From: a virus
Lineage: Duplodnaviria > Caudoviricetes
Length of the DNA: 64,000 nucleotides
Direction: 5' to 3' (one strand)
IMG/VR virus record: IMGVR_UViG_3300032272_000005
Coordinates: 23,333-87,332 of that record
The first letter of the stretch is position 1, and the number at the start of each line of letters is the position of its first letter. Positions 16,640 to 63,424 of this stretch are shown here, one piece after another. Below the pieces are notes generated by a model. It was not told the origin of the DNA, searched no databases, and saw only the letters and a program-made list of their open reading frames with translations. A program made the translations under genes and the position numbers.

Positions 16640-16737
16640 TGATAATCTCCAAATGTGGTGTTGTCCTACATCGTCGTAGAATACCCTTAGTATACCCCCC
16701 TACATTTGGTTTGTCAACCCCCGTGATCTTGAGTTCA

Positions 16738-30227: not shown

Positions 30228-32170
30228 AGGGAATAATCCTTCATTTCAGTACGCCGCTTGGCGTCGTTAAAGGCAGCTTTCGCATAGCCAGCAGATACCT
30301 CATTGGAAGCCGCTTCGACTAGGAACGGTGACGTATACATCAAGCGGGAAAGAATTTGCTCTACCCCGTCCTGATCGTCTGGAACCATTTCATCAAACTC
30401 TTTTTCAAGGGTCAGTAATTGTGTCAGACATGCCTCGGATGGGTTGTCTTCATAATCGCGTATGCATCTTTGCATTTTGGACGCCAGAACTTTAATGGCT
30501 TTTTGGGTTGCCCCTGCCGCGCCTTGCTCACCTTCATTGATCGGGGGTCGTGGGGTTATGCCTTGCCCCGTGCCTTCACCTGCTGGTGCTTCAGCTTGTG
30601 GTGTGATCAAGGTTTCTTTGAATTCCTCTGCCACTTTGATGTCAAGACTTGCAATCGTTGCCAGTTGGTCAACCCACTCTGACAAAGAAATACCTTCAGT
30701 TCTTTGCAACATTGAAAGTGCACGCAATTGTAGGTTCACGTCGTTCACTGTAAGCGGATTAGATACGAATTTGAAAATACCTTTGGGATCAATTTCTCGC
30801 ATGAAACTCATGTTGTAGCGTTCGTCTTCCTCAGTCCGTTCGGGTGCGAATACCTGTGCCTCGGCAACCACGTAGGATGCGTGTGCTGTGGCGAAGTTAT
30901 AACTATCAGATGCGCCCAAGAATATCGAAGGCATACGGAAAGAACGGCGTATCCGCAATTCATTACGCTCATCATATTTTTCGAAGGTACTGTCAGCGTC
31001 ATTGGCCCCGAACTTTTCGACTTTCACTGTCGCGGCTTTCTCGCTGTCGAGATTACCAGACGCAGGAACTTCAACAGCCACCCCACGTTGCTTCTTAGAA
31101 GATTGCCCACCCAGATATGAGTTCAGTGTCTTGGCTACTTCCTCAGATACAATACCGCCTGAGATAAATACGATAACGGGTGGTACACCCCCACTGTGGA
31201 AGAATGCCAGATTGTGTTCTTCCGCCATACGTGATCCCAGAACCGACGGTAGCTGCGTGATCCAACGTGGCATACCATAAGGTGAGCGCACGTCTTCAAT
31301 GTCTTTGTCGTGTACTATGGAATGTGCCCGACGCGCGGCTGGTAACTTCTCACCCTCTTTGGCCCATTCACCAGTTACGCGGTCAAGATCACGACTTGCA
31401 CCATACTCTTTGTAGTAAATCAGCTTAGTGCCAATCTTCTGCACAAAACGGCGTTCTGCCCTCATAGTTTTTAGTTCAACTTCTTTACCACCCCGCATTA
31501 CTTTCACAGTGACAGGTACGGCTGCATCCAGTTTCACCAGACGCATTGATTTGGACGGGGCACGACGCAAGAACGCCAAATCACCCGTCATAGTATGTTC
31601 AAAGACTTTGTAACTGTTGCCCGTGTGGTGTAGATCGCGGCGTAATTCTTTACGGGTTTTCATAAAGGACTTGCGCGGAAATACCTCGGCCAAAAATTCT
31701 TCGATGTTTTCTTGTATAATTTTTTCTTCATCAGACAGATCAATGTTGTTGCTGTCTTTGGGTAAGATTTTATACCCTGTCCCTGAGATATTTGTGATCA
31801 TGGCTGCAATACAGGGTTCAAGTGTGTTGTTCTCAGACACCAAGCGTTCCAGCCGTTCAGGGGCTATTGGGGGTGCCAGCAAAGATGGCCCCGCGCTTAT
31901 CCGAATGTAGTCATGGAAAAATTGGTCTTCCTGATCCAACAGTGTGGCGGATATATCCCCCCCAGTTGCGAGTTCTTTCCTGAACTTAGCGGCCTGTTTT
32001 GGGTCAAGATGGCTTTCGGCTTCTTTGGCCAATTCTTCACGGGTAAGCCCCGTCAATGCTGTCATGGCTAGGACACCATAATTGTGTCGGCCCCCATCTT
32101 CGGCTTTGAATACGTTTTGATTATCGCCTGTCAAGACGCGGCCTTTCGGGGGTTCTGTTTTCTTTGCCAT
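30224..32170 (-). CDS. Portal protein (PBSX-like)
   Basis: GNSY..F, YGMPRW, FFHSGGVP, IRRSFRMP, NFATA; adjacent to MuF. Confidence 0.9.
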   Translation of the reverse strand: MAKKTEPPKGRVLTGDNQNVFKAEDGGRHNYGVLAMTALTGLTREELAKEAESHLDPKQAAKFRKELATGGDISATLLDQEDQFFHDYIRISAGPSLLAPPIAPERLERLVSENNTLEPCIAAMITNISGTGYKILPKDSNNIDLSDEEKIIQENIEEFLAEVFPRKSFMKTRKELRRDLHHTGNSYKVFEHTMTGDLAFLRRAPSKSMRLVKLDAAVPVTVKVMRGGKEVELKTMRAERRFVQKIGTKLIYYKEYGASRDLDRVTGEWAKEGEKLPAARRAHSIVHDKDIEDVRSPYGMPRWITQLPSVLGSRMAEEHNLAFFHSGGVPPVIVFISGGIVSEEVAKTLNSYLGGQSSKKQRGVAVEVPASGNLDSEKAATVKVEKFGANDADSTFEKYDERNELRIRRSFRMPSIFLGASDSYNFATAHASYVVAEAQVFAPERTEEDERYNMSFMREIDPKGIFKFVSNPLTVNDVNLQLRALSMLQRTEGISLSEWVDQLATIASLDIKVAEEFKETLITPQAEAPAGEGTGQGITPRPPINEGEQGAAGATQKAIKVLASKMQRCIRDYEDNPSEACLTQLLTLEKEFDEMVPDDQDGVEQILSRLMYTSPFLVEAASNEVSAGYAKAAFNDAKRRTEMKDYSL

Positions 32171-35100
32171 TAGTTCATACTCACCTTTTCAAGTCCCGCC
32201 AAATTCAAACCTAATTCACCGTCCACAGTAAATTGTAGTTCTGGCTCCCAGTCAAATTTTTCCTTAAACGGTAAATTCTCCATTGTTTCTACAGCAAATC
32301 CCAAGGCTTTCATAGGGTCATTTTCATCCACGTACCATAACCCCTGATCGTGTATCTGTGCAAAAGGTACTAACAGATCAGGTTGTTGTTCTTCGATTAG
32401 TCCCATACTCCACCACATCATGTCAACCAGTGTCCCTTGTATTGGTGAATTGATCGCCTGACGCTCGGAGGTTGAACGGGTCTTTTTGATGGGTGAGTAT
32501 ATGTTGTGTAAGCGTCTGGTTCTGCCAAGTGGTGATCTCACCATTCCAGTTTGTTGCGCTTCCATTATCTGCCGTGAGTGCCACGCTTTCAGGCCAGGAT
32601 ATAGATCAAAGAATGCGTCACGCATGGCCTCGGCTTCTTCGATTTCCACCTTCACCCCGTATACGGCGTCGGCATACATCATAAAGCCATATGCCCCCAT
32701 GCCATACAGCAACCCAAAATTACCAGCCTTGCCCCGTTGTCGAAGTTGCTCGTAAGCGGGTCGATCCATTTTCTTTAGGTTCATGGCTTCTTCATATGTC
32801 ATGGCGTTTGTTGTCGCGGCTGTCAGCGCGTGCAGATCAACCCCGTTCTTGTACGCCGTGATCATCTGTTGTTCTTGGCCCCAACATGCAGCGACTTTCA
32901 ATTCGCCTTGGGAATAGTCAACCGCGCATATCAGTTTGCCCTTTGGTGCTATGATGCATTCGCGTAATCGCTTGCCCCAGTATGAGTGCTTGGGCACTGT
33001 GTTGTGGACATACAACCCATTAGCCGTGAAGTCGTGCGTGTCTGGTACTGTGAAGTCATAGACATATTCCCCTACATTGGTGGGCAGAACTGTATCCACT
33101 TGCAACCCAGACCGCTTGCGATACTTGTAATCATCGGTCACGCGGTCTTCGGGCCAATCATCAGGAAGGCACCCCGCCCATGTAGCTGCACGTATCGCAG
33201 CCACCCCACTCCACGTAATTGTGCTGGTGAACTCAAGATCACGCAGATGAGGGGCATCAATTCCTTTGAGCAGACTTTCTTGTTGAACCACTCGTGCCAG
33301 TTCGAATGGCAGTTCTATCCTCAGTCCGACTTTGCCGCCCTTCATACGTGGGTAAGTTGCCATTGCCCCTACCATTCCACAGAGTACCCAGCCCATTGCT
33401 TTGGTTGCCCGTAGATGTCTTGGGATTTCTGGGGTCTTGCCATGCTCGAAAGCGGCTCTGAATTCTTCGGCCCCGTCTGACCAATAACCCCGTTCGCAAT
33501 ACAGCGTGAAGATCGCCACCCCGTCCACAGTATCCACCGTATATTTCTCTTGAAGTGTCGCAGCCCACACTCGGACTGGCCCCGCTACCCGTTCTGGAAC
33601 CTCAATGTGCAAACGTGCCAATGTATGTGAAACCCGCCCAGACGCTAAACAGACGCCCATAGCACGGCACATTTCCTTGGATACCCAGTCGGGTGCGTCC
33701 AGTAGGTCAATTCCATGATGTTGTATCAGGTGATCAGATGCGAGTAGGTTCTTGGCCTTGCACCAGCCCCTCTGGGTCTTCACTGGATGTTCTGGTGTAC
33801 ACTTTAGTTTCAGACCGTTCTTCAGTGTCAGTTCAACTATGTCACGCCGCCACGACTTGAACACGTTAGTGGTTTGTTGCCACCCTTCTAAGCCCCAGAC
33901 TATTATTTCAGCTTTATGAATAGGAATGCGGCTGTCACCCACGATAGGGTCAATAATGCTTGCAGCCGTTTTAAGCCCCTCTGAGGTGATTATCTCGGTT
34001 TCCCCCGTAACACATTGGAAAGCGGGGTTAGTCGCCGTACCGCGCCCTGTAACGGTGCCACCACCCCCTTCTCCGCCTTTCGTTCCTTCCCCAACCTTGT
34101 GAATGATGTATGATGCGTGCCAGCGATCATCATAGCGCAGGTGTTTCAGGAAGCCCTCGTAATATGTGCCATACATCTTGGCTACAGATTTGTAATCCAG
34201 ATATTGTTCGATCAATGGTCCAGCTATAGGGTGGTCTTTAAACTGTTCTAAGTGGAATTGTGATGTGGAAGGCTTTTGTGTTTTCTCAGTTACCTCAATA
34301 GGCTTGATACCACACCCCAATTGATTAGTCGGGCTGAACAAGAACTCGGCAATCATATTTGGCTTGGATAGCGGGGCGCGTCCATGTTCGTCTATGCCCC
34401 CATATTTGTCCATGAGTTTGGTTGGCATCATATCCGCAGCTTTGCGCATACTTTCGGTTTGCCTTCCTTCCAGATCGGCCCCGTATTCGTGGAACTTTTC
34501 ACGATCTACGCAGACGCCATGATGCTCCATTTTGTGCAGGGCAATCAAAGCAGGGTGAACCACATTCATGTAGAGCGACGTTAGGGACTGTTTAGACGGG
34601 CCTCCATTCTGTGTTGGGTTGTCCTTGATCAACTCCCCCCGAATGGCCTTGTATACCTTTAGCCCCGCGTCTGTGTCACCACCTGCATAGGGCAGCAAAT
34701 CGGGCTTCGGGACTTCATTCATTTTGGCTTTGTTGTAGGTACGGTTAAAGTGATCATCGTACCCCCCAAGTAATGGTGCATAAATCTTAGTGTGGACATT
34801 AAGCGTGTTAGCCCGATTTTCTTCAAGTAATGATCCGCCATTGCAGCTATCGAAGGTGAAGTTCGTGAATACCACTTGCCACTTTACCCTCATCCAGCCC
34901 ATGTCAAATTTGAAGTTAGCCCCAACAACCTTGACGCGCGGGTCTTTGGCAAGCTTCCGCATGTCGATTATGAATTTCTTCATCTGCCATTCAGTTAAAT
35001 CTGGCATGTAGATCACGTCGGATACCCCATCCGCTGCCGTGAATGATGCGCTCAGAATATTCTTATCCTTGAACCATGGGAATAGCCCTTCGGTTTCCAG

Positions 35101-35571
35101 ATCACAGCACAGATCAACGGGTTTACCCGTCTGTTTGAATTTAGCGTTAATATAGGCGTTCACCCCATCAAGATTGGTGACATAGGCGTAATCACCAAGT
35201 TCTGGTTCCATATTGCCAGTCTGCTCAAAGCGTTGGTACTGGCGAATGTCGCACATAAAATCTACGAAGTTGGTGAAGTCCATGTGTTTGATCTGTGGGG
35301 CATATGTCACCCCAAGATGTATAGGGTGCACCCATCCGTCAGGGTGTGCGGAAAACAACTTCCCACGGTTCGAGACAATGCCACCTTTGTTCGGTATCCA
35401 CCCCGCCGCTTGGATCATATCCACGGCTGGCTTGCCACATGCAATCAAGAGCGTTTCTTCTGAGGGTTGTAGATACTGTGGATTTAGTTGGACTGTTGCG
35501 TTAGGAATACTTACGTCGGCAAGAGCCGACTTCACCAAGTCTGGATCGCATTTCTGTACTATTAATCTCAT
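32170..35571 (-). CDS. polA: Family A DNA polymerase with UDG-like N-terminal remnant, 3'-5' exonuclease and intein
   Basis: DLETEG, NFKFD, YAGGD exo motifs; DYSQGE, KAGNFGLLYG, QIHD polymerase motifs. Confidence 0.95.
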   Translation of the reverse strand: MRLIVQKCDPDLVKSALADVSIPNATVQLNPQYLQPSEETLLIACGKPAVDMIQAAGWIPNKGGIVSNRGKLFSAHPDGWVHPIHLGVTYAPQIKHMDFTNFVDFMCDIRQYQRFEQTGNMEPELGDYAYVTNLDGVNAYINAKFKQTGKPVDLCCDLETEGLFPWFKDKNILSASFTAADGVSDVIYMPDLTEWQMKKFIIDMRKLAKDPRVKVVGANFKFDMGWMRVKWQVVFTNFTFDSCNGGSLLEENRANTLNVHTKIYAPLLGGYDDHFNRTYNKAKMNEVPKPDLLPYAGGDTDAGLKVYKAIRGELIKDNPTQNGGPSKQSLTSLYMNVVHPALIALHKMEHHGVCVDREKFHEYGADLEGRQTESMRKAADMMPTKLMDKYGGIDEHGRAPLSKPNMIAEFLFSPTNQLGCGIKPIEVTEKTQKPSTSQFHLEQFKDHPIAGPLIEQYLDYKSVAKMYGTYYEGFLKHLRYDDRWHASYIIHKVGEGTKGGEGGGGTVTGRGTATNPAFQCVTGETEIITSEGLKTAASIIDPIVGDSRIPIHKAEIIVWGLEGWQQTTNVFKSWRRDIVELTLKNGLKLKCTPEHPVKTQRGWCKAKNLLASDHLIQHHGIDLLDAPDWVSKEMCRAMGVCLASGRVSHTLARLHIEVPERVAGPVRVWAATLQEKYTVDTVDGVAIFTLYCERGYWSDGAEEFRAAFEHGKTPEIPRHLRATKAMGWVLCGMVGAMATYPRMKGGKVGLRIELPFELARVVQQESLLKGIDAPHLRDLEFTSTITWSGVAAIRAATWAGCLPDDWPEDRVTDDYKYRKRSGLQVDTVLPTNVGEYVYDFTVPDTHDFTANGLYVHNTVPKHSYWGKRLRECIIAPKGKLICAVDYSQGELKVAACWGQEQQMITAYKNGVDLHALTAATTNAMTYEEAMNLKKMDRPAYEQLRQRGKAGNFGLLYGMGAYGFMMYADAVYGVKVEIEEAEAMRDAFFDLYPGLKAWHSRQIMEAQQTGMVRSPLGRTRRLHNIYSPIKKTRSTSERQAINSPIQGTLVDMMWWSMGLIEEQQPDLLVPFAQIHDQGLWYVDENDPMKALGFAVETMENLPFKEKFDWEPELQFTVDGELGLNLAGLEKVSMN
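33001..34014 (-). mobile_element. Intein (338 aa) with degenerate LAGLIDADG region
   Basis: C1 CVTGET, block B CTPEHP, block F VYDFTV, terminal HN followed by Thr+1. Confidence 0.92.
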
Positions 35572-36305
35572 TTAGTGCCTTCTGTTAATTTTACCAGCGC
35601 GGGGAAAGGTGACGTTAGAAAGGGCCTTAAGGCCCCGTAAAACGCCCCGAACACCATGCGGAATTCTTCGGGGTTTTCTTGATAGGTGCCAGCACATTCA
35701 GCGTGGCAGGTGATGCGGTCTACATATTTGGTAGTGCCCCCCAGACGTGACAGGCACATAGCCACGTCGCCTTCTGGCTTCATATTGTCTTCTGTGGTGA
35801 ACCGTAGTGAGATTGTTTTGTCTCTGATCCGTGCCGCGCCTCGGAAGTTAGGGCCAAGGAATACCGCGCGGTAAACTGAATTGTTGGAAGTTCCGTCAAT
35901 TAACTGGTACATCTTTGAAGCGTTACAAAGAGAAACTGTGTTCGGGAAATACTCCGCAGCCACTTGTTCAATCCATTGTTCTTCATCCAGATTTGTACCA
36001 TTTGAAAGCATTGTCTTTTTGGTTTGGTACACGGAAGGTGCAGTTGTGTACCCCGACTGGAAAATGTTTCTGACAGATGCAGCCGCAGCCACAATTTTCG
36101 ACGTGTTCTTCTGCAAGTCGGCAACCCCAATTTTCAGGGTTGTGCTTCCATGCTCATGTAGAATTTTAGTCTCATTGAACCCTATGTGGACAGTGGTATC
36201 AATTGGGATGCCAGCTTCTTTGCAAAAGATACGGGCATTTTTCTTAATATAGTCTTGGGCACTATCGCCAAGATGTGAGGGGGCGTTTTTAAAGATGATA
36301 GCCAT
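35568..36305 (-). CDS. Hypothetical protein co-transcribed with polA
   Basis: TTGGAGA RBS, promoter at 36362-36367, ATGA overlap. Confidence 0.75.
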   Translation of the reverse strand: MAIIFKNAPSHLGDSAQDYIKKNARIFCKEAGIPIDTTVHIGFNETKILHEHGSTTLKIGVADLQKNTSKIVAAAASVRNIFQSGYTTAPSVYQTKKTMLSNGTNLDEEQWIEQVAAEYFPNTVSLCNASKMYQLIDGTSNNSVYRAVFLGPNFRGAARIRDKTISLRFTTEDNMKPEGDVAMCLSRLGGTTKYVDRITCHAECAGTYQENPEEFRMVFGAFYGALRPFLTSPFPALVKLTEGTK

Positions 36306-36367
36306 TTGAATTAATCTCCAAAATTAGTGGTGTATACCTACATACGCCCCTACGAATAATTTGTCAA

Positions 36368-36943
36368 CTAATAACGGTAGCTGATTTCAACTTTCTCAGC
36401 GTCATAGTATTTGACCAGAAAATCGACTTGCTGCGAACTCTCGACAGCTTTGTGACAATATATCTTTTTGACGTAGTTCACAACGTCCTTGGGGGCCAGC
36501 CCCATATGCGCCAATACAGCGGCTATCACCAGCCCCGTCCGCCCATGTCCACCAATGCACCCGACATGAACTGTCAGGCCCGTGTCCAGTGCGTCTGCAA
36601 TCTCTTGCACAAGCGAATGGAACTTACTCGGATTAGTCGGAACGCTCATGTTAGTTATCGGATAATACGAGCAGCGGACAGGTTTGCTATCCTCTTTATA
36701 ATGCGGGTGCTGTTGCATCCCGTCCAATGCTATGAACCAGTCCACATCTTTATGTCTGTCATGGTCGCGGCAGTTGCCCCCGATAAGAAAGCCTTTTGAG
36801 ACGGGCAAGGGTTCATGCGTGTTATGGCAGCGTGGTCTAGCCGTGTATACTGTTTTTGCTTTAGATTTAGAGTTGTTCCCCCACAGATCACTGGTTGGAT
36901 CACCCGTCGGGTCGAAATTGTCTAGGTCTATTTTGTTAGTCAT
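36368..36943 (-). CDS. Cys-dependent (PTP/dual-specificity-like) phosphatase
   Basis: VGCIGGHGRTG CX5R loop; AVES..Q. Confidence 0.88.
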   Translation of the reverse strand: MTNKIDLDNFDPTGDPTSDLWGNNSKSKAKTVYTARPRCHNTHEPLPVSKGFLIGGNCRDHDRHKDVDWFIALDGMQQHPHYKEDSKPVRCSYYPITNMSVPTNPSKFHSLVQEIADALDTGLTVHVGCIGGHGRTGLVIAAVLAHMGLAPKDVVNYVKKIYCHKAVESSQQVDFLVKYYDAEKVEISYRY

Positions 36944-36944
36944 T

Positions 36945-37847
36945 TTAGGCTTCCTTCAAATGTGTAAATCGTATTGGCCCTATCGCAGTGGTATTGCGCT
37001 CAAGGCGTGTGGCTGTTGATTTCTTCGGTTTCTTTTCCACGACTTCGGTAGGGTTAAGGTGCGCTTCTGCAATTGTTTTAAACAGCATGAATTGCTCATA
37101 TACCTCATAAGACGTGTAGGCCTTAGTCGCCGCGATTTGCTCAGACATATCGAATACAGACGATTTCGCTTGTGCATTCAAAACTTCTTCAAGGTTATCG
37201 TCATGTATTTTGAAATAGAAACCTTTGTTAAATATTGGCCCCGTGTTGTGAACCAGTGTCCAACACCTATCACATGCCAGCATGGCAGACATATTCCCGT
37301 CTAAATATTCCCTGAATTGATCAGCTATAATGCCCCATGCCTCACCCCCGAATGATCCTAGCCAGCCACCCTCATGATAGTGCTTGCATACCGCGTCAAA
37401 CAGCGGCCCGATTGCCAGTATACCATTTTTAGATATGCTTTTCATGTAATCTGATCCAGTCCCCACTTTGTAAATAGCGACTGCATGTGGATTGCCCTGC
37501 CAGTTATCCCCGAAAGCGGTTTCAATCATGTGATGCTTTGCATGGCGCAATTCTTTGATGCAAATTCTCCACAGGTAGAAAAGTAATGAACGTGCAACCG
37601 TCCCACAGGACTTGTTCCAAGCCGAGCATAATTTGTTGTAATCATCTTGAGACATATCTGGCTGTTGCAGAACCAGTTTGTCTGCCAACTCGACACCACC
37701 ATAATGAATATATGCACCAACAGTCGGGCGCAGCATTTTTAACCCCTCTTGGTGATAATTATCAGCTTTGATAAGTTCCCCAATTGATACGTGTCGCTGT
37801 GGTTTAGCAACTCGCAAAGGGTGTTTTGTGAAATAGGTGTAGTCCAT
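36945..37847 (-). CDS. Uncharacterised protein (ELRH, GGEAW, LVHNTGPIFNKG motifs)
   Basis: TTGGAGA RBS, promoter at 37901-37906. Confidence 0.75.
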   Translation of the reverse strand: MDYTYFTKHPLRVAKPQRHVSIGELIKADNYHQEGLKMLRPTVGAYIHYGGVELADKLVLQQPDMSQDDYNKLCSAWNKSCGTVARSLLFYLWRICIKELRHAKHHMIETAFGDNWQGNPHAVAIYKVGTGSDYMKSISKNGILAIGPLFDAVCKHYHEGGWLGSFGGEAWGIIADQFREYLDGNMSAMLACDRCWTLVHNTGPIFNKGFYFKIHDDNLEEVLNAQAKSSVFDMSEQIAATKAYTSYEVYEQFMLFKTIAEAHLNPTEVVEKKPKKSTATRLERNTTAIGPIRFTHLKEA

Positions 37848-37908
37848 ATTGATCTCCAAAGTGGGTGGTGTTGGGCTAGCCTATTCCCCCATTAATGGTT
37901 TGTCAACC

Positions 37909-38496
37909 CTATGTTTTAAAACCAGTTAGCAAAGACCATAGACGGGCGCGTCTTGTCAGGATGGGTAGTGGTTCATCAAAGTGTATACGCCCCATTGCTT
38001 CCCAATCCACTGTAGGTGCACGTTCAATTGTAGACACATGCGTGAAAGGTGCGGATGCTTCAAACAATCCCGCCAAATCCAGAACTTGATTATATTGGTC
38101 TTGGGTTTCTACAGCGTGGGCTTTGTAGTTGGCCCTCACATACGCCACAGCCGCCTCACCTGTGAATTGTGGGTGTTGTGCCACAAGAAGGGCTAACAGC
38201 GTCCCAGTGCGGCCTGTGCCGCCCATGCAACCGACATACAGCTTTCTTTTCCCGTCTTCCAGATCGCGCAATATGTCAGGAAGATTATACTCTATTGCAT
38301 CAGTGTCGAATGTTTGGAAGTCGTTACACCCAAGGTCATAGGCAGGGACATAATCAATAGGGATTTCTATTGCGCATTTCACCAAGCCATAATCGACTGG
38401 CTTTTCGCGTGTCGGGCCAGCGTGGACATAAGCCACTTTGCCAGATGCTAAAGGGATTGCTAAACATTTTAGGGTGGGCTGTTGATAATGGTTCAT
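37909..38496 (-). CDS. Cys-dependent (PTP/dual-specificity-like) phosphatase
   Basis: VGCMGGTGRTG CX5R loop; AVET..Q. Confidence 0.88.
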   Translation of the reverse strand: MNHYQQPTLKCLAIPLASGKVAYVHAGPTREKPVDYGLVKCAIEIPIDYVPAYDLGCNDFQTFDTDAIEYNLPDILRDLEDGKRKLYVGCMGGTGRTGTLLALLVAQHPQFTGEAAVAYVRANYKAHAVETQDQYNQVLDLAGLFEASAPFTHVSTIERAPTVDWEAMGRIHFDEPLPILTRRARLWSLLTGFKT

Positions 38497-38873
38497 CGGT
38501 TTACTTTCTTCACTAGGGTATCGCACAAAGGTGCTTCTCGATTAAAGGCGCGGGGGCAGGGTCGGGTTGCTGTTCCGTACTTGCCATTCATATCTCGTTT
38601 CACAGTTTGCAGCATTAGTCCCTTACAGATTTTGCATTCCTGAACGGGTCTTTCATCTACGACAATCGGGCCAATCATGGAGAATGACAGAACTGTGTCT
38701 GCTGGCATGTGCAGCACGTATGATCCGAAGACTTTATTGCCCATAGAATGAAACGTATTTGTTGCCGCTGCCGCAATACCTCGAACACGGTTTTCAGTGT
38801 CATTACTAAACCCACAGTGACGGGCTTGGGATATTGCAATGGGGGATACTTTTATCTCATGTAATTTCAGCAT
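38493..38873 (-). CDS. Hypothetical protein with CxxC...C motif
   Basis: Tiles in dikinase operon. Confidence 0.65.
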   Translation of the reverse strand: MLKLHEIKVSPIAISQARHCGFSNDTENRVRGIAAAATNTFHSMGNKVFGSYVLHMPADTVLSFSMIGPIVVDERPVQECKICKGLMLQTVKRDMNGKYGTATRPCPRAFNREAPLCDTLVKKVNR

Positions 38874-39129
38874 CGTCTTGCCACCAGATGTTGACTGATT
38901 TTGGTGCAGCTATAACAACTTTGATCCGCTTGCCCTGTGAAGATCGCCTGTCCACCCCGACAAACACTTCGGGCCATATCTCGAAAGTACGATCCCATGA
39001 CAACCCGAAGCGATCCCCATTGTCCAGTTCCACTAAGCAAAATCCAGGCCGCTGAATGGAAAGAACAGTCAGATTGTGATCCCCTACGAAGATCGTTTGC
39101 TTTTCCAAGACTGAACATATTTTCGACAT
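38857..39129 (-). CDS. CsrA/RsmA-like protein (tandem, single-chain)
   Basis: IFVGDHNLTVLSI and IKVVIAAPKSVNI resemble the CsrA strands. Confidence 0.55.
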   Translation of the reverse strand: MSKICSVLEKQTIFVGDHNLTVLSIQRPGFCLVELDNGDRFGLSWDRTFEIWPEVFVGVDRRSSQGKRIKVVIAAPKSVNIWWQDDAEIT

Positions 39130-39141
39130 TTCGGCACATTC

Positions 39142-41007
39142 TCAGGTTACATCCAGTAGGTCAAGTAAATCTATTGATTTGGTAAACTTGGAGGGTGTGA
39201 GCGTTCCTGTTGCGCTACGGAATTCTGTTAGGGCATTTCCTTCGGTTCCGAAGACGATATGCCCCGCCAAACTATCTCTGAAGTATTTGATAAACCCTTG
39301 ATGAATAACCCCCACTTTGTTGGAGATCAAATCCTCACCATGACCAGTAAAATCCACTTCAAATGCAGCATGGTTTTTGCTGTCGGCTTTCTTGTGTTTT
39401 TCAGCCGCGATTATTTTTTCTTCCGTATCTGCCATGTTGCCAAGGTCAAGCACATAGGTGCGGTGCGTTCCCGCGTCTGAGTTTTTAAGGAAGAACACGT
39501 TATCAGATATGTCGCCGCCATGCTTATCGAATTCAGCTTTTAAAATGTCGTACAGTTCGGTAACGTCTCCACCAACGGATATATCCATTTTGCCAACCCA
39601 GACGCCGCCAGTGCCCCCGTCAATCGTTATAGTCTCACCCCTAACCATTGTGTTACCACCGATCTTTACAAAGTCTACACCGTCGTTATGGGTGAACTCA
39701 AGATCATCAGCCCCGACAACTGCCGAAACTCCAATGCCCCTTGCGACAACCGCAGAGTGACATGTGAAGCCACCCGTCTTGGTCAGGATTGCACCCGCCG
39801 CAGCCATTTGTGGGAAGTCTTCGGGTTGGGTATCTTCCGCAACCAGAATACAGGTTTTGTCGATGTCGCCTAACGGGGTGTCTCTCCAAACGATCCGACC
39901 AGAAAATGCAGATGGTGAAGCGGCAAGCCCAACAACACAGGGTTCATCTTTGGAAGATACGAATGAGACTTTGGAACTTTCAACCATTCTGCGTGTCAGG
40001 CGTTTCTTCAAATAGTTCAAAGGGATTTTTTCCTCTTTGGCAAATTGGACAGCCGTGTCGATCCGTGCCTTGGCAGACATTTTAGCTGTCCGCGTTTGCA
40101 GCACATAAAGCGTTCCGCTCTCGACAGTGAACTCAATATCTTGGACGTCTTTGTAGCGGGTTTCCAGTTTCCCGCACAGGTCACGTAACTTCACATAAAG
40201 CGCGTGTTTCTCGCCGCCCTCATCCCACAGTTCATTGATATTCTGCGGTGTGATTTCGCCTGACACAATTTCTTCACCTTGGCAGTTGAACCCGATTTCA
40301 CCAGTGATTTTATTTTCGCCAGTGGCAGGGTCGCGGGTGAACATTACGCCACTTCCAGAAAGCCCATCTGCGGTTCCCATTACCATGCGCTGGACTATAC
40401 AGGCCGTTCCCATGTTATCGTCAATATCGTGCATCTTGCGGTAGGCTTTGGCGCGTGGTGTATTCCAGCTTTCGAATACTGCGGTGACGCATGAGGTCAC
40501 TTGGTCAATTCTTTCAGATGGGATTGTCACGCCAGCCGCGTGTCCAAGTAAACGATCCAGCAATACATTTTTGAAAGTGCCAAATGTTTCTGAGCGTTTC
40601 TTGATTTCATCCATCAGGTATTTCACCCGCTCTTTGGATATGTCTTTTACAATGGTCAACCAGCCCGTTGCGAACCGTTCATAGTCAGGGTGGTTGCGTT
40701 CGGCTCCGACGTTCAAAACTGTGTCCATCATGCCTGGCATTGAGATTGGTGCACCCGATCTGACAGAGAATAAAGCGTCTGGATAATCGACTAGAAATTG
40801 CGCGATTTGGTTTTCTGCTAATGGGTGTAGGGTTCCCGTCTCACGGTAATGACGCCATACGTCTGTGGTCAGGATTAAAGCTTCTGGCACGTTCAAACCA
40901 TTCCCTGCCATTTCCAATAATCCCGCGCCTTTACCCCCGAACTCGGCAGGGTCTACATCGTATAGCGGGACATGGGAGGCATCGGTTCTTGCGGCGTAGG
41001 TGGGCAT
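39142..41007 (-). CDS. Pyruvate phosphate dikinase-like protein lacking the C-terminal PEP/pyruvate TIM barrel
   Basis: GGKGAGL, SVRSGAPISMPGMMDT, VQRMV, FTRDP, QDIEF, LQTR (ATP-grasp); GGFTCHSAVVAR (phospho-His domain). Confidence 0.9.
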   Translation of the reverse strand: MPTYAARTDASHVPLYDVDPAEFGGKGAGLLEMAGNGLNVPEALILTTDVWRHYRETGTLHPLAENQIAQFLVDYPDALFSVRSGAPISMPGMMDTVLNVGAERNHPDYERFATGWLTIVKDISKERVKYLMDEIKKRSETFGTFKNVLLDRLLGHAAGVTIPSERIDQVTSCVTAVFESWNTPRAKAYRKMHDIDDNMGTACIVQRMVMGTADGLSGSGVMFTRDPATGENKITGEIGFNCQGEEIVSGEITPQNINELWDEGGEKHALYVKLRDLCGKLETRYKDVQDIEFTVESGTLYVLQTRTAKMSAKARIDTAVQFAKEEKIPLNYLKKRLTRRMVESSKVSFVSSKDEPCVVGLAASPSAFSGRIVWRDTPLGDIDKTCILVAEDTQPEDFPQMAAAGAILTKTGGFTCHSAVVARGIGVSAVVGADDLEFTHNDGVDFVKIGGNTMVRGETITIDGGTGGVWVGKMDISVGGDVTELYDILKAEFDKHGGDISDNVFFLKNSDAGTHRTYVLDLGNMADTEEKIIAAEKHKKADSKNHAAFEVDFTGHGEDLISNKVGVIHQGFIKYFRDSLAGHIVFGTEGNALTEFRSATGTLTPSKFTKSIDLLDLLDVT

Positions 41008-41064
41008 ATGTATTCTCCAAAGTTGGTGGTGTTGGTTCCTACATACGCCCCTGCATTTGGTTTG

Positions 41065-41685
41065 TCAACCGTTTATTATTCCATACAATCCAGTTTCTAG
41101 GTATTGATCCAGCGCGGTTCCTGCCATTTGGATTGCGTGCTGTTTGCTCAAGTCCCAGTCGTTATCGTCATGTTCAGCGTCTTCCTTCAATATGAAAGCT
41201 GCCATTAATGCTGGTGCATCTGGTGGGTAGTGTCCACGATCACATAACGACACGGTAGCGGCTGCGGCTGCGTACAAGAACTCGGTATGGCCTGTATAAA
41301 ACCCCGTGCGGCGGAAGCGTAAATAGTGCTTCTGCATATCGTCAGCATATTGTCCGCGCCAATGTTCGGGTAGAAGTGACGAAACCTTCATTATAGACGC
41401 GACTACGGCTCTCTCGGTATCCTTGCGCACATAACGTGCCTCATTGTCAGCGGCCCCCTGTATGGCCTGATACATCACATATGCTGGAAACCCAAGTGAC
41501 ACGGCTTCCTTGATAGTTTTGGGCTTGGCCCGTTCCCGTGCTGCCCGTCCTGCATAGATGCGTTTCCACTGTTCTTCGTCGGTCAGATCACGCCACGATT
41601 TCCGCTTGCCTATTAATGGGTGGCGGGGCTGTCGTCTAGCGGCGGCTGGGCTTGGGTTTATTTTTATATCGCTGGGCATTTTCAC
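41065..41685 (-). CDS. Hypothetical protein
   Basis: 206 aa ORF following the glycosyltransferase. Confidence 0.65.
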   Translation of the reverse strand: MKMPSDIKINPSPAAARRQPRHPLIGKRKSWRDLTDEEQWKRIYAGRAARERAKPKTIKEAVSLGFPAYVMYQAIQGAADNEARYVRKDTERAVVASIMKVSSLLPEHWRGQYADDMQKHYLRFRRTGFYTGHTEFLYAAAAATVSLCDRGHYPPDAPALMAAFILKEDAEHDDNDWDLSKQHAIQMAGTALDQYLETGLYGIING

Positions 41686-42490
41686 TCCAATATTTTGCGC
41701 TATGGTTTATCATTAGATCATTTGGTCTTGGTTTCCCTGTCACCTTACGGGCATTTCCTTTCAGGTGATCCATGTATTCCCCTATGAACGAGTTAACGAA
41801 TGGATGCCCCGCCCCCTTTCGTCTGGGCAGGTGTGAAGTTAAACTGTAGTGTAGCGGGTCAGTTGCCCTTTTTGGCACATTTTTTCTGGCTATGTCAAAC
41901 AACCAGCTATCATGCCATTCTTTTTCTTTCTTAAATGTCCCATTGCGATAGAAATCTGTCCAGCCATTCAAGACGTCAATTCCGTGTTCATTACGCAAAT
42001 TGAAGTAGATGTAGCCGCATTCTGAATACTTGTAACACCGCCCCAGATATTGCAGGTCAACATTCGGGTTAGCGAACTGTTTCTGTGCCGCTTTCAAGGG
42101 TACACGGGAATGAGTGAGGCTATCCGCGTCCAACCAAATCATTCCGTCGTATGGGCGTTCCAAGCCTTTATTGTAAACCGTGGCGAAGTGGTGCAGAACC
42201 AGCGGCTTGTGGCAGAACTTCACGGCGTCGAAGCGGTAATTGTACTGCCCGTTTACGATACCCTTGGCAGCTTCGTTCCCGCCAAACTTGCAGACAAAAT
42301 CGTCACGATCCTTGACCACTTCTTTGTGGTAGTGAACTCGGTGAGATTTTATCTGTGGGATTGGTTCATCAGCAAATATATGCAGATCAATTTCGGAAGG
42401 CCACAGACGCTCGAAAGATGCTATCATACGGTGCGCGTATTGCTCATACCCAGCTTTGCTGAATGTGGTTACTACTGCCAGTTTTCTCAT
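41636..42490 (-). CDS. GT-A fold glycosyltransferase
   Basis: DAVKFCHK, WLDADS DxD motif, WHDS, HLKG; TAATG overlap with TerL. Confidence 0.75.
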   Translation of the reverse strand: MRKLAVVTTFSKAGYEQYAHRMIASFERLWPSEIDLHIFADEPIPQIKSHRVHYHKEVVKDRDDFVCKFGGNEAAKGIVNGQYNYRFDAVKFCHKPLVLHHFATVYNKGLERPYDGMIWLDADSLTHSRVPLKAAQKQFANPNVDLQYLGRCYKYSECGYIYFNLRNEHGIDVLNGWTDFYRNGTFKKEKEWHDSWLFDIARKNVPKRATDPLHYSLTSHLPRRKGAGHPFVNSFIGEYMDHLKGNARKVTGKPRPNDLMINHSAKYWSENAQRYKNKPKPSRR

Positions 42491-44346
42491 TATACGCCCT
42501 CTTTTGTCATTATGCTGGATTTCGTAGGATCGACGCCATGAGATACCCATGTTTCACGTTTTGATGCAAGTCCGTAGATCACGCCCGTTGCGGCGTCTGC
42601 CAAGTCTTTCGATCCGTCAGGCGGGTGATCCACTTTTGAATTCTGTGACACCCAGACCAATTCCCGTAATTCCTTTTGAAGCAATTCATTCTTCGGCCCT
42701 TTGACCATTCCGTCTAGGATCAGTCGTTTTGTCAGCATGTAGGGTTCAGGTGTTCTATCAAGTGACAACAACCCACTACGGAAATTCTTACGCCTCATTG
42801 TCTGGATGAAGTCGGCAGATTGAAACCCATCAAGACTAACCCATTTTATCGGGTATCCCATTTCACGCAGTACGAATATCAGCTTCTTGAGTTTGTGGAT
42901 TGGTATCTGTGACCCACCCGTAGGCTTGATTGTCAACAGGGCGTCCATAGTGATCTCAGGAAGCGTGTCAATCATGCCGCCCCCACGGTCAACCGTTTTG
43001 AACCCCGAACAGTGCCCCATAGCGAATGCAGCGTAATCAACCGACAACGCTAAATCCAAGTGCACATAACGAGCCTCTTTCGGATTTACTATATCATGCG
43101 GTGGTATCACGGCTGGCTGTCCATGGAAGTTGCATGTGTCGGGGTTGAAGATATTCTTACGTTTCCCGAATGCCTCTGCGATCAATGCATAGTTGCTGAT
43201 GAAGTTTGAAAAGCCATGCAATGCGATACCAGCAATGTCTTTGATTGCACCTGCAAGATCGCTTTCAAACGGCCCATAATATTCGGTTGGTACTTCCAGT
43301 ATGAACGGCTGATCCTCTACATGTATTTTCTCACCTTCTGGGATGATGTAGGGGCGGCGTGTACCATCCCCAGTAAACACTTTAAACCGCTCTTTGCTAA
43401 AGCGGCCTTCTGGTTGGACTTCCCAAGGGCGTTTATCATAAATGTAGATGTTTGTTTTGCCAGTCCGCGCTATCTGTCTATCACGTTCTTCTTTTTTCTT
43501 GTCGGTAAACTGTCCCGCGTAGTTTGCTGACCCGACGAGACATAACATTCCCAAGATTTTGCCTTCTCTCAAGAACCGACTTTCACGGCGTCGGGCAATG
43601 GCTCGGTAATTCTCTAACATCTGATCCCAGTTGCCCCCGTCTTTGGTACGGCTTGAGCCTTGGATCACTTTCATGTGGTTAACTTCGTCGATCATTCCGC
43701 CCATCACGTTTTCACCGATAGCGGCTGTCTCTGTGCCTGGAAGTGGTTCAACCACAATGGCGGAATTGTGGAAGCGGATAGACGCCTTCAAATCTTTTTC
43801 GTGTGGTGCGTTTTCCCGAAACCAAGGTGAACCTTCCAGCGTGCGTCTGAGCCGCATGTAATCGACTGTGAAGGCCGTGCCCCCCGTGATTGACTGCATG
43901 ATGAAACTGATCTCAGAGGATTTGTCCATTTCGAATTCAGCGTGTGGGTCGTTCAGGTTCAAAACGCTATACAAATTGAAAGCTGTCACAAGGATTGCAG
44001 CCGTGGTTTTGCCCGTCCCGATTGATCCCGTAAACACAGCTTCAGTGTACTTGCCAGAACAAGCCTCAATCACTTCTGCGCGTATCACAGGCCACGGGCT
44101 TGATATACCCCCAAGGTAATAGGGATCATCTAAGAACTGCTCACAGGTTACAGGCGGGAAACGATACTTCTTTTCTTCGGCTTCGGCGTGGCTGATCGTT
44201 TCTGTGATCTTGGCATAATACTCGTAACGGTGCACTAGATTTGGAATGCCACGTCCAATGTCCACGACGTCAGGCCTGTCAAATTCTAACAGTGCTTCTT
44301 CGAAGTCGGACAAGTCCTGCATTGCAGACGCAGTTGCATTGCTCAT
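42490..44346 (-). CDS. terL: Terminase large subunit
   Basis: GSIGTGKT Walker A, MIDE Walker B, HLDLA and KDLADA nuclease motifs. Confidence 0.93.
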   Translation of the reverse strand: MSNATASAMQDLSDFEEALLEFDRPDVVDIGRGIPNLVHRYEYYAKITETISHAEAEEKKYRFPPVTCEQFLDDPYYLGGISSPWPVIRAEVIEACSGKYTEAVFTGSIGTGKTTAAILVTAFNLYSVLNLNDPHAEFEMDKSSEISFIMQSITGGTAFTVDYMRLRRTLEGSPWFRENAPHEKDLKASIRFHNSAIVVEPLPGTETAAIGENVMGGMIDEVNHMKVIQGSSRTKDGGNWDQMLENYRAIARRRESRFLREGKILGMLCLVGSANYAGQFTDKKKEERDRQIARTGKTNIYIYDKRPWEVQPEGRFSKERFKVFTGDGTRRPYIIPEGEKIHVEDQPFILEVPTEYYGPFESDLAGAIKDIAGIALHGFSNFISNYALIAEAFGKRKNIFNPDTCNFHGQPAVIPPHDIVNPKEARYVHLDLALSVDYAAFAMGHCSGFKTVDRGGGMIDTLPEITMDALLTIKPTGGSQIPIHKLKKLIFVLREMGYPIKWVSLDGFQSADFIQTMRRKNFRSGLLSLDRTPEPYMLTKRLILDGMVKGPKNELLQKELRELVWVSQNSKVDHPPDGSKDLADAATGVIYGLASKRETWVSHGVDPTKSSIMTKEGV

Positions 44347-44875: not shown

Positions 44876-45517
44876 TCATTTTTTCGCCGCGCGTGCTTGG
44901 GATTTGCTCATCCATGCTTTTGAGTATTCACGATCTGCAAACAATTTGGAAAATCCAGTGATGTGCTTGAGCCTCAGAAGTTCTTCTTCACCCATACCCA
45001 ATTCATTACAGACCTCGGCGTCTGACCATCCTTCTTCCAGCATTGAAAACACCATAGAAGCCATACCGTCTACAGAGTGTGAACCCCGTGCCCGATTATG
45101 CCTTACTGTACTTGCCATCCTGTTGTTGATATCTTTGTCAATTACCACGATGGGAAGCATACCATTGTTGCGCTCATAAATGTCTTCATTGGTCTTGCAT
45201 ACAAAGTACCTGTGGAACCCATCTACAATAACATACAGGTTCTTGGTTTCATCCCAGACCGTCACGACAGGCTGGGTGTACCCATCATGCAGGATTGAAG
45301 TATAAAGTAACTTCATTTCTACCTTGGCTACTGAGTTTGGGTTATAATCATTTGGGCAGACCATTTCAACGGGCACCCAACGTATCAAATCGACTGGCTG
45401 GGAGGCATTGGGGCTTATTTCGTGCAACCATGCCCGAACAGCTTCAACAGCCGTTAGACGGGCTTGAGGGTCTTCAATGGCTGCAATTTTGTCTAGGTCT
45501 ATCGGATTAGTATCCAT
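44876..45517 (-). CDS. ibrB: IbrB-like ParB/Srx domain protein
   Basis: PNDYNPN, GYTQPVV, IVDGFHR, STVRHNRARG. Confidence 0.85.
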   Translation of the reverse strand: MDTNPIDLDKIAAIEDPQARLTAVEAVRAWLHEISPNASQPVDLIRWVPVEMVCPNDYNPNSVAKVEMKLLYTSILHDGYTQPVVTVWDETKNLYVIVDGFHRYFVCKTNEDIYERNNGMLPIVVIDKDINNRMASTVRHNRARGSHSVDGMASMVFSMLEEGWSDAEVCNELGMGEEELLRLKHITGFSKLFADREYSKAWMSKSQARAAKK

Positions 45518-46701
45518 CAGTTAGCCTTCGCTTTCTCTGCTTTTTCTAGTTCATGTGGGGGTATCCATGTGCCATATTTGGCTTTGATGGGTCTGCCCGT
45601 TTTCCATTTGATGAATTCCCCTGCTTGGGGGGTGGTGCCAAAGTTGTCCAGCTTCACAAAATAATAATCGTTTGTCAGGATCGTGCTTATCTGTACAGCC
45701 GTGAGGCGGTTCTTATTCAGCATTCCATCATAGGCTTGATCATCACGGGCAAAACGCTTCCTATATATCTCAGTGTGTTCTGGATTTATCACCAGCATAT
45801 CCAGTAGATGATCCCGATATTCTACCCATGTTTTGAACATCCAAGGTAGTTTTTTTGGTGCCTGAAACATATAGCTTTTCTCAAGGTTCAGGGCTGCGTG
45901 TACACCCCCAAGCCTCTCAGTCAATTTGTCCCATGTCTTCCCTTCAATCTCAGGAAGATAATAAAGACTGTGGATCGCTGTTGAATGGTGTAGGTTGGAT
46001 ACCCGCATTTGAAAGGGCGCAACGCCGTGCTGATACATGCTGTCGTATATGGTGCAATACTCACACCCAACTTCATGGATGTATTTCCAAACGTCTTTGT
46101 AAGACCAGTCATAAATTGGGTAGAACGAGTAATGAGGGTGCTTACCCTTGTTCAGTTTCTTTGCCCATGTGATGCCCTTGAATTTTGGTGAGGTAGTCAG
46201 TCCTTTGGATCGTGCGGGGCTTTCCTCTGCCCTCACACCCCCAATTAGACAGGCGCGTTCGTCGGGGTGATACACCCGTAGTACAGCGTCGAACATATCA
46301 TAGAAGGCTTTGGTTCCGAAGATGTTCTCGTGGATACTATTAGGCTCTTTTTCCCTCATCCAAGTCTTGCCTTCTTCCCAGCACTGTAGCCAGTTGTCTT
46401 TCATGGATGCGGAATTGAATAGCTGGATAGGTACTTGCAGCCAATAAGGTTCTACGCGGGGATCGTTCATAACAGTTCTTACATAGTCGGCAGTCGCTTG
46501 CCACTCGGCTTCCTGATCTACCCAGATTACTTTAAGGGGCAATCTGTCAAGTTCTGTGGCTACAGTTAACGCCAGTTGCAAGCATGTTGTGCTGTCTTTA
46601 CCACCAGAAAATGCTAGATAGATATTGTCGAATTCTGAATACAGAAATCTTATTCTGTCAAGTGCAGCCTCTTTTACGTTTTGTTTCAGGCGTATCTTCA
46701 C
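45517..46701 (-). CDS. ibrA: IbrA-like PP-loop protein (PAPS reductase family)
   Basis: FSGGKDS, GVRAEES, YPIYDW..KDVW, RVSNLHH. Confidence 0.85.
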   Translation of the reverse strand: MKIRLKQNVKEAALDRIRFLYSEFDNIYLAFSGGKDSTTCLQLALTVATELDRLPLKVIWVDQEAEWQATADYVRTVMNDPRVEPYWLQVPIQLFNSASMKDNWLQCWEEGKTWMREKEPNSIHENIFGTKAFYDMFDAVLRVYHPDERACLIGGVRAEESPARSKGLTTSPKFKGITWAKKLNKGKHPHYSFYPIYDWSYKDVWKYIHEVGCEYCTIYDSMYQHGVAPFQMRVSNLHHSTAIHSLYYLPEIEGKTWDKLTERLGGVHAALNLEKSYMFQAPKKLPWMFKTWVEYRDHLLDMLVINPEHTEIYRKRFARDDQAYDGMLNKNRLTAVQISTILTNDYYFVKLDNFGTTPQAGEFIKWKTGRPIKAKYGTWIPPHELEKAEKAKAN

Positions 46702-46711
46702 GATCTTATCC

Positions 46712-49310: not shown

Positions 49311-49365
49311 TGTTGGCTTCTCCTGTATGTGGGCACTATGCACCCCTACTTATGGTTGGTCAACC

Positions 49366-63233: not shown

Positions 63234-63424
63234 ATTAGTTGGTTAGGATTTTATGTGTATGCCCCTGCCCATGATTTGTCAACCCTAGAAATGGTTCGGG
63301 CCGCAGCACCACCCGCGACCCTTGTGTAAACCATCACTACAACCTATCGAAACAGATCGGAAGGCACCTTTGGAGAAGTAACCCTCGGAGTACATGTTCT
63401 ATAAAGCACCATCGTGCACGTTTG

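Follow-up and report, generated by a model that had tools for sequence, protein, structure and literature searches.

What might a phage do with a PPDK-like dikinase that has kept its ATP-grasp and phosphohistidine domains but lost the pyruvate barrel, and why are two cysteine phosphatases and a 300-residue protein of no assigned function encoded beside it, just upstream of the DNA polymerase? The question is raised by a locus in a stretch of 64,000 nucleotides from the Caudoviricetes record IMGVR_UViG_3300032272_000005 (the whole stretch is called the window, and positions are counted from its first nucleotide). The window is part of a complete, terminally repeated phage genome of 87,332 bp and has nearly all of its genes on the minus strand. 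In the direction of transcription, the genes of the locus are the dikinase, f7, s126, PTP1, X300, PTP2, Y245, and polA, where PTP1 and PTP2 are the phosphatases and X300 is the 300-residue protein. An initial annotation made from the DNA alone had singled out the dikinase, the phosphatases, and X300 as a possible phospho-switch, and every feature of the block that it listed is present where it was placed, on the minus strand. We propose, with a probability of about 40%, that the block encodes a phosphoryl-transfer pathway which a very large siphophage lineage conserves in its core genome and expresses with its DNA polymerase, and which would act in three steps on a nucleotide-like substrate.

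A dikinase without the pyruvate barrel

The dikinase (39142-41007, minus strand; 621 residues) matches PPDK_N (PF01326, E-value 1e-40) and the mobile domain of the phosphoenolpyruvate (PEP)-utilizing enzymes (PF00391, 6e-20) and no further Pfam family. It aligns to residues 24-516 of the 876 in maize PPDK (1vbg; E-value 9e-70), and its identity to full-length PPDKs is 36-40% over the first two domains (dikinase residues 23-477). Superposition of GGFTCHSAVVARG on GGMTSHAAVVARG of 1vbg places the catalytic histidine at residue 417, and the nucleotide-site motifs GGKG, VRSGA..SMPGMMDTVLNVG, DIEFT, and LQTR are all kept, bearing out the initial annotation that the ATP-grasp and swivelling phosphohistidine domains of PPDK are retained. 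Among 55 aligned relatives, conservation of the ATP-grasp and His-loop motifs is 95% or higher, and residues 480-621 are not conserved. Judged from these motifs, the dikinase should be able to run the nucleotide half-reaction and load its histidine, but it has no site for pyruvate or PEP.

PPDK proper (EC 2.7.9.1; maize 1VBG and Clostridium symbiosum 1KBL) shares with the phage protein the ATP-grasp domain, the swivelling His domain, the GG-x-T-x-H-x-A-V-V-A-R motif, and the nucleotide-site motifs, but its C-terminal PEP/pyruvate TIM barrel of approximately 360 residues (past residue 516 of 1vbg) is replaced in the phage by an unrelated tail of 144 residues (478-621). The barrel family PF02896 is absent both from the dikinase and from the complete 87-kb genome. 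The possibility that the tail is a decayed TIM barrel was rejected, as its comparison with PPDK gives a BLAST E-value of 0.44 and an hhalign probability of 0.3%, and it matches no Pfam family. The earlier description of the replacement as roughly 110 unrelated residues was therefore right as to unrelatedness and too short as to length, and its conclusion that the protein cannot be a normal PPDK stands, given the lack of a barrel in the protein and of PF02896 genome-wide. The closest relatives of the dikinase are other truncated proteins of 615-650 residues (43-53% identity), followed by cellular full-length PPDKs at about 38% identity over the first two domains, which identifies it as a PPDK derivative minus the barrel. 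Records labeled as phages (Listeria, Enterococcus, and faecal) that also match the dikinase were set aside; they encode full-length bacterial-type PPDKs of approximately 880 residues, and the module is absent from them.

We found the module described as a system nowhere in the literature, and genome papers list the dikinase gene as a PPDK auxiliary metabolic gene that aids host glycolysis. That it might indeed be a genuine PPDK boosting glycolysis has database annotations, published papers (PMC10671443), and the identity of the first two domains to real PPDKs in its favor, but the PEP/pyruvate domain is missing from protein and genome alike, and the score against the TIGR01828 equivalog model is 349.6 bits, far from the cut-off of 843.45, with coverage of model positions 18-510 of 865. 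A glycolytic auxiliary role is ruled out by this domain content, the published label is wrong, and we allow a true PPDK, or one completed by the host, virtually no chance. With the pyruvate/PEP barrel lost, the phosphate must pass from the histidine to some other acceptor.

There are precedents for such a change of acceptor. In HpeHI, phenylphosphate synthase, and rifampin phosphotransferase, the same engine phosphorylates a hydroxyl that does not belong to pyruvate, with the parts on separate polypeptides (PMC12167813). Unlike the HpeHI-type enzymes, the phage dikinase carries the ATP-grasp domain and the histidine in one chain, and separate genes for them are found only in one other phage lineage that is discussed below. 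The phage engine also differs from the RPH/PEPS branch in deriving from PPDK proper, since PPDK models rank far above RPH, and no acceptor domain of the rifampin-binding type was recognized in it; the X300 fold is different and unmatched, and RPH chains are not among the fold matches to the X300 model found with Foldseek or VIA.

The tail itself is acidic, as is the dikinase as a whole (median isoelectric point (pI) of the tail, 4.9), and in the window protein it ends in ...IDLLDLLDVT. Its C-terminus (39142-39180) forms a short amphipathic motif that is clade-specific, LDLLDLL here and PADYAVFxxL, PVYWYD, or SVSQALQL in other clades, a pattern that suggests a co-evolving docking peptide.

Conservation of the gene block

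By tblastn, the dikinase and X300 genes were located together in cultured phages, at a spacing of 2-3.5 kb and with the gene order of the window in the annotations; the carriers are SIO-2-like vibriophages, the Stenotrophomonas phages DLP5, DLP3, and Summit, Rhizobium phage RHph_TM16, and Rhodobacter phage RcZahn. Our survey comprised 91 loci, 79 from IMG/VR, 8 from 185,579 species genomes, and 4 from cultured-phage records (two of these four being bacterial-type PPDK controls that lack the module), and presence was scored by clustering of open reading frames (ORFs) and then by family hidden Markov models (HMMs) over six-frame translations. X300 and the phosphatases are present in 89 of the 91 loci, the dikinase, Y245, and PolA in 81 each, f7 in 80, and s126 in 70, and the missing genes fall at contig ends. 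The same order was seen in 80 metagenome loci and in 80 loci fetched by the phosphatase motif, so that over three scans the order dikinase-f7-s126-PTP1-X300-PTP2-Y245-PolA was found in approximately 240 loci, some contigs recurring between scans. Co-occurrence, which the initial annotation had put forward as a check, is far beyond chance in the relatives (89 of 91, 81 of 91, and the two sets of 80).

The block belongs to the core genome and occupies a fixed site between terminase and polA in every relative. Its flanks vary, with TerL or a DNA ligase/MazG/deoxynucleoside monophosphate (dNMP) kinase group upstream and small genes before polA, and the block itself is constant. In several relatives the dNMP kinase gene is directly upstream of the dikinase gene, with MazG, an ATP-dependent DNA ligase, and dCTP deaminase nearby. 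The 8 species-genome loci with X300 are all contigs of phage size from metagenome-assembled genomes or prophages, including one (L088) that is a rearranged prophage remnant adjoining an integrase; a non-phage bacterial context for X300 was dismissed on these grounds, and the family is all but confined to phages.

The genes are also physically joined. The Y245 stop and the polA start overlap by 4 nucleotides as ATGA, which places the block just upstream of polA, as the initial annotation had it, and the two genes are translationally coupled. The stop of s126 overlaps an internal ATG of PTP1 in the same manner, as ATGA, and the ATG at 38496 is probably where PTP1 really begins; PTP2 starts immediately after the X300 stop (TAAAATG). 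Three promoter-like cassettes, rather than the two first claimed, lie on the minus strand of the block: upstream of the dikinase (41047-41068; TTGACAAACC...GGGG, then a conserved leader and GGAG), upstream of X300 (37885-37906), and upstream of Y245 (36346-36367). They belong to a family with 22 minus-strand copies in the window, against 0.31 expected by chance, that consists of TTGACAAAYY, 8-9 nucleotides, GGGG, a weak -10 element (TATGTA-like), and a conserved ACACCAC...TTTGGAGA leader; other copies include 639-660, 16696-16717, and 63261-63282. A generic sigma-70 scan of the window gave no enrichment, and the phage-specific cassette escapes such a scan.

It could be argued that nothing but lineage-wide gene order keeps these genes side by side, and that dikinase, phosphatases, X300, and Y245 are functionally unrelated. 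Nearly all of the co-occurrence does come from one lineage with genome-wide synteny (TerL ... PolA, portal, MuF), and three internal promoter cassettes split the block. On the other hand, the flanking genes differ between sub-lineages while the block is constant, and stops and starts overlap or abut at s126-PTP1, X300-PTP2, and Y245-polA. X300 and a phosphatase are, moreover, adjacent in unrelated contexts, including a position after a split dikinase, as described below, and we regard synteny alone as a very improbable explanation.

X300, a new fold with invariant polar residues

X300 (36945-37859, minus strand; 300 residues from the ATG at 37847) belongs to phrog_20946 (E-value 1.6e-26), a family without assigned function, and across 36 homologues no Pfam match was obtained even at E-values up to 5. 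A profile built from 60 diverse members retrieves 2598 clusters at 50% identity with E-values of at most 1e-3, 660 of them at 1e-30 or below, and identity among relatives drops to roughly 20%. Within this diversity, the residues of the ELRH and HNTGPIFNKG motifs, to which the initial annotation had drawn attention, are invariant across the 60 homologues. The full set of invariant positions in the 60-sequence alignment comprises Y49, Y91, E99, R101, H102, G167, G168, W171, D193, H200, N201, F206, N207, K208, and Q226. This pattern suggests an active site rather than a scaffold, from which X300 may be catalytic.

The AlphaFold2 model of X300, built from a 36-sequence alignment, is confident (predicted local distance difference test (pLDDT) score of 92, predicted template modeling score of 0.84) and shows an all-alpha protein with a C-terminal hairpin. 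Against the PDB, Foldseek returned a best E-value of 0.3, and an exhaustive VIA comparison returned a best Z score of 4.5, below the noise for helical proteins; in the BFVD library of viral models, the only matches were four unnamed members of the X300 family itself. By these comparisons X300 has a new fold, and its invariant residues give it an enzyme-like character. Longer proteins were searched for X300 fused to other domains and none was found, a negative that is weak evidence.

Of two candidate identities for X300, the first is disfavored and the second was rejected. A language-model lead to an AcrVA2-like protein (PF26125) scored 0.93, but no PDB chain was reached by profile, and 7CI1 is not among the matches listed by the fold searches. 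AcrVA2 in 7CI1 is an alpha/beta protein with a beta-sheet middle domain (PMC10846135), and the all-alpha X300 is set apart from it by this description. For a di-iron or HEPN enzyme, close relatives show the set H9, H48, E53, and D56 and an R-x5-H spacing, but the alignment of 60 sequences does not bear out their conservation.

Two groups of cysteine phosphatases

The phosphatases on either side of X300 were described initially as paralogous CX5R enzymes, and both motifs are found at their coordinates with catalytic residues intact. PTP1 (37909-38526, minus strand) has the P-loop CMGGTGRTG, within VGCMGGTGRTG, and PTP2 (36368-36943, minus strand; 191 residues) has CIGGHGRTG, within VGCIGGHGRTG. 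Both exceed the gathering cut-off of 27 bits for PTP-SAK (PF22784), PTP1 with 31.5 bits (2.2e-7) and PTP2 with 32.4 bits (1.1e-7). Across relatives, position in the block sorts them into two orthologous groups: in the upstream group (PTP1) the P-loop is C-[MW]-G-G-x-G-R-T-G, its fifth residue varying, and the downstream group (PTP2) reads CIGGHGRTG in 55 of 61 orthologues. The Cys, Arg, and Thr of the P-loop are invariant in both groups, which also retain an Asp before the P-loop and an AVE(T/S)xxQ motif after it. In PTP1 the invariant residues are D69 (DFxVP), C100, R106, T107, E140, and Q144, and PTP2 has the consensus PIxDMxxP upstream of the P-loop; from its position, the upstream Asp (D69 in PTP1) is a candidate general acid.

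Among solved structures, PTP1 is closest to Tk-PTP (5z59), DUSP23, and SsoPTP, and PTP2 to ShufPTP, Tk-PTP, and SsoPTP; the profile E-values for SsoPTP, Tk-PTP, and DUSP23 range from 1e-11 to 1e-13. The phage enzymes have in common with these minimal phosphatases (SsoPTP 2I6I, Tk-PTP 5Z59, DUSP23/VHZ 4ERC, and PTP-SAK) the CX5R(T) P-loop, the upstream Asp, the downstream Gln motif, and a core of approximately 150 residues. They differ in having Gly rather than His before the Cys, in the His that PTP2 adds within the P-loop together with a Cys/His-rich N-terminal extension, and in an obligatory pairing with X300. PTP1 and PTP2 are ancient orthologous groups with intact catalytic motifs, and they are real, distinct, and probably hydrolytic cysteine phosphatases. 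The phosphatases, X300, Y245, and s126 are all basic, with median pI values of 8.5-9.4.

Some database labels in this family are misleading. The gene annotated as thymidylate synthase (ThyX) in DLP5 (L002, 11580-12368) is the PTP2 orthologue, and this error is probably the source of the thymidylate synthase label on phrog_17568.

The X300-phosphatase pair in other phage lineages

Outside the main lineage, X300 and a His-type CX5R phosphatase are found side by side in other phage lineages, an arrangement that is new here. Two contigs, L241 and L243, are informative. In L243 a 201-residue PF00391 protein (5e-20; the His is in ...LLCHAAIVCR) and a 303-residue PPDK_N protein (PF01326, 2e-33) constitute a split dikinase, and their genes are tightly packed with those of a 452-residue X300-like protein and a 428-residue phosphatase, after which comes a RepB-type primase. 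In L241 a phosphoribosyltransferase and a 119-residue ORF precede a 474-residue X300-like protein and a 232-residue phosphatase, with no dikinase in view. In the X300-like proteins of both contigs, the residues Y, ELRH, GG..W, D, HN, and K are preserved, and a fused N-terminal region of approximately 250 residues is Cys-rich and resembles a Zn-ribbon; the L243 protein matches cultured-phage X300 genes by plain tblastn.

The phosphatases of L241 and L243 read GCMGGHGRTG, and an exact search of IMG/VR for this string gave 16 loci, namely L241, L243, three contigs of the main lineage, and 11 others outside it. Among these 11, an X300-like gene is followed by the phosphatase in 5, with unrelated neighbors and no dikinase nearby, and the phosphatase stands alone in 6, mostly at contig ends or on short fragments. 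Both PF00391 and PF01326 are absent, in whole-record searches, from three pair-bearing genomes that CheckV rates as 100% complete (46, 45, and 68 kb). Adjacency of the pair across lineages, together with three complete genomes that lack the dikinase, indicates that X300 and the His-type CX5R phosphatase are the core and that the dikinase is an add-on, which joins the pair in two lineages, as one chain in the main lineage and split in L243. The Zn-ribbon module likewise appears either as a neighbor (s126, at times fused to f7) or fused to X300, and X300 would usually act together with it. The initial annotation had read the locus as a writer/eraser module; a pair of dikinase and phosphatase is not the basic unit, as X300 and a CxGGHGRTG phosphatase persist without the dikinase.

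In dikinase-less lineages, the phosphatase partner is long, at 517-624 residues (L256, 5328-7199; L259, 2455-4008; L262, 3850-5400; L265, 10773-12326), and its N-terminal region of 250-480 residues has no sequence relative in the PDB; this region might stand in for the kinase or serve in targeting.

The main alternative is that the dikinase is itself split and that X300 is its acceptor subunit in trans, so that the phosphohistidine would phosphorylate a hydroxyl, for example a Tyr of a phage or host protein, and the phosphatases would erase the mark, a reversible control of the sort that the initial annotation had proposed. Two-component dikinases of the HpeHI type phosphorylate a phenolic hydroxyl (PMC12167813), the closest solved relatives of the phosphatases act on phosphotyrosine or aryl-phosphate, the fast-evolving tail with its clade-specific amphipathic end (LDLLDLL, PADYAVFxxL, PVYWYD) is as expected of a docking peptide, and in L243 the split dikinase, the X300-like protein, and the phosphatase form one tight operon. 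Yet the three complete genomes that have the pair and no dikinase domain show that X300 is not merely a dikinase subunit, and neither this lineage nor the longer proteins yielded a fusion of dikinase and X300. Nor is any target protein indicated, and a fixed core position beside polA would be unusual for a host-takeover switch. We rate this arrangement as a possible but unlikely alternative.

A more far-reaching view takes the pair as the starting point, with X300 and the His-type phosphatase as a novel two-enzyme system of many phage lineages, in which X300 would catalyze a phosphate-dependent change of a nucleotide or of DNA or RNA. The dikinase would have been recruited in the SIO-2/DLP5-like lineage to supply a phosphorylated intermediate, and the adjacent polymerase would require for replication a non-canonical nucleotide or nucleic-acid mark that the pathway produces or recycles. 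In so specific a form, the proposal is speculative and, on balance, doubtful.

The phosphoribosyltransferase of L241 (2356-2946, plus strand) is a type I enzyme (PF00156, 1e-19) two genes upstream of the pair. As a recurrent partner of X300 it was rejected, being found on one contig only and absent from five other such records. An enzyme of this kind adjoining an X300-like gene would suit a counter-defence block that destroys, or converts by adding and removing phosphate, an immune signal of the host or a metabolite that has been depleted (cyclic or oligonucleotides, ADP-ribose derivatives, or NAD-related compounds), as would the variable dikinase tail, the essentially phage-only distribution of X300, and the definition of PTP-SAK, the best Pfam match of both phosphatases, in nucleotide-centered conflict systems. 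However, the phosphoribosyltransferase link does not recur, no PADLOC defence model was matched, the hosts span alpha-, beta-, gamma-, and epsilon-proteobacteria with very different defence repertoires, and the block is always at its fixed core site rather than in variable accessory regions. The fixed position and the lack of a defence-model match make a variable anti-defence or host-takeover accessory less likely, and counter-defence appears to us rather improbable.

A proposed phosphoryl-transfer pathway

In the pathway that we favor, the dikinase would use ATP, converting it to AMP, to load phosphate on His417 and would thereby make or trap a phosphorylated substrate. X300 would then transform this phosphorylated substrate, and the phosphatases would remove the phosphate after the X300 step. 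The substrate would be nucleotide-, nucleoside-, or nucleic-acid-like and required during DNA replication, and in lineages without the dikinase the host would supply it in phosphorylated form. The order of the steps, the nucleotide-like substrate, and catalysis by X300 are the parts of this pathway that we infer; a nucleotide-like substrate is suggested by the coupling to polA, the nucleotide-metabolism neighbors in relatives, the single phosphoribosyltransferase neighbor, and the high pI values of s126, X300, both phosphatases, and Y245.

Several considerations weigh against the proposal. The DNA-metabolism context is guilt by association within one syntenic lineage, and the phosphoribosyltransferase neighbor is single and non-recurrent. 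The solved structures closest to the phosphatases (SsoPTP, Tk-PTP, and DUSP23) are of protein tyrosine phosphatases, not nucleotide phosphatases, and the catalytic role suggested for X300 has its basis in invariant polar residues alone. Outside the main lineage, the X300-like proteins are only distantly related to X300 (HMM E-values of 1e-12 to 1e-20), although their key residues are kept. ThyA, dNMP kinase, and dCTP deaminase are all lacking from the genome of the window, in which no known route to a modified base is evident. Finally, DLP3 is the one carrier among the relatives whose DNA has been characterized chemically; that DNA does resist restriction (PMC7326821), but this is explained by arabinosylated 5-hydroxycytosine, a modification made by a different gene cluster (PMC13326640). 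A known base-hypermodification route was accordingly rejected for the block itself, with ThyA, dNMP kinase, and dCTP deaminase missing here, the DLP3 route encoded in the other cluster, and the dTMP phosphatases of phages with dU-DNA belonging to other families.

Two known systems offer a logic that the proposed pathway may resemble. The first is glucan, water dikinase with SEX4/LSF2 (or laforin), in which a PPDK-family dikinase and two CX5R phosphatases act on one substrate in a cycle of phosphorylation and dephosphorylation. The likeness is one of analogy only: the phage block has no detected carbohydrate-binding modules and a DNA-replication context, and its phosphatases belong instead to the minimal SsoPTP/DUSP23-like group. 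The second is the 5-hydroxymethyluracil DNA kinase with aGPT-Pplase (PMC8989533), where a hydroxyl is phosphorylated and then substituted by a helical enzyme in phage DNA metabolism, a possibly similar sequence of events. The kinase of that route is, however, a P-loop enzyme, and the present genome lacks a ThyA-type hydroxymethylase.

Other genes of the locus

The membership of the block proposed by the initial annotation was correct for the dikinase, X300, and the phosphatases but had overlooked f7 (38857-39129), s126 (38493-38873), and Y245 (35568-36305), all on the minus strand. The f7 protein (90 residues; family HMM E-value 2e-14) is CsrA-like: it matches Pfam CsrA (PF02599) with an E-value of 0.043 and 14.2 bits here, and a relative (L018) does so with 1.5e-5 and 25.3 bits, against a cut-off of 27. 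The s126 protein (126 residues; family HMM E-value 1.4e-29) is a Zn-ribbon protein with an N-terminal domain of the H..GNRRY type and a C-terminal knuckle of the CxxCxGxGCxxC type. In at least seven relatives (L107, L127, L144, L155, L217, L231, and L246) f7 and s126 are fused into one ORF, from which we take the two small proteins to be functionally linked.

Y245 (245 residues), the conserved member found in 81 of the 91 loci, is modeled by AlphaFold2 as two alpha/beta domains (pLDDT 82). It has no sequence match in the PDB, and its fold matches are weak (Z scores of approximately 5, to the T4 MotA C-terminal domain and DHHA1-like domains), so that we draw nothing from them. Its orthologue in V-YDF132 (L001, 11681-12577) is misannotated as a transporter.

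The fixed downstream neighbor of the block, polA (32170-35571, minus strand), encodes a family-A DNA polymerase of 1133 residues with an intein-like insert that reads ...FQCVTGETEII ... LYVHNTVPKH. Many relatives have a PolA of approximately 780-800 residues, and with PolA ORFs of 1035-1601 residues in others, inteins seem common at the polA site.

Two further observations concern the region on the other side of the block. Between terminase and the block, a 304-residue ORF (41636-42550, minus strand) has a WLDADS motif reminiscent of GT-A glycosyltransferases, and it has no match in Pfam, PHROG, NCBIfam, or PADLOC. Upstream of the small terminase, an IbrA/IbrB-like cassette (44876-49343, minus strand) encodes a PAPS-reductase/DUF3440 protein, three ParB-N proteins, and a class I methyltransferase, and it is also recurrent in close relatives.

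Implications

The block is carried by thousands of phage genomes, including those of vibriophages and of Stenotrophomonas phages proposed for therapy. It couples a known ATP-driven phosphate carrier to a structural orphan with a confidently predicted fold and to two dedicated phosphatases, and it is wired to the replicative polymerase. The finding that X300 and its phosphatase form an autonomous core shows which pair to reconstitute first. Identification of the substrate would define a new enzyme family, and it would probably reveal either a hitherto unknown step in how phages metabolize nucleotides or DNA, or a new form of control by phosphorylation.

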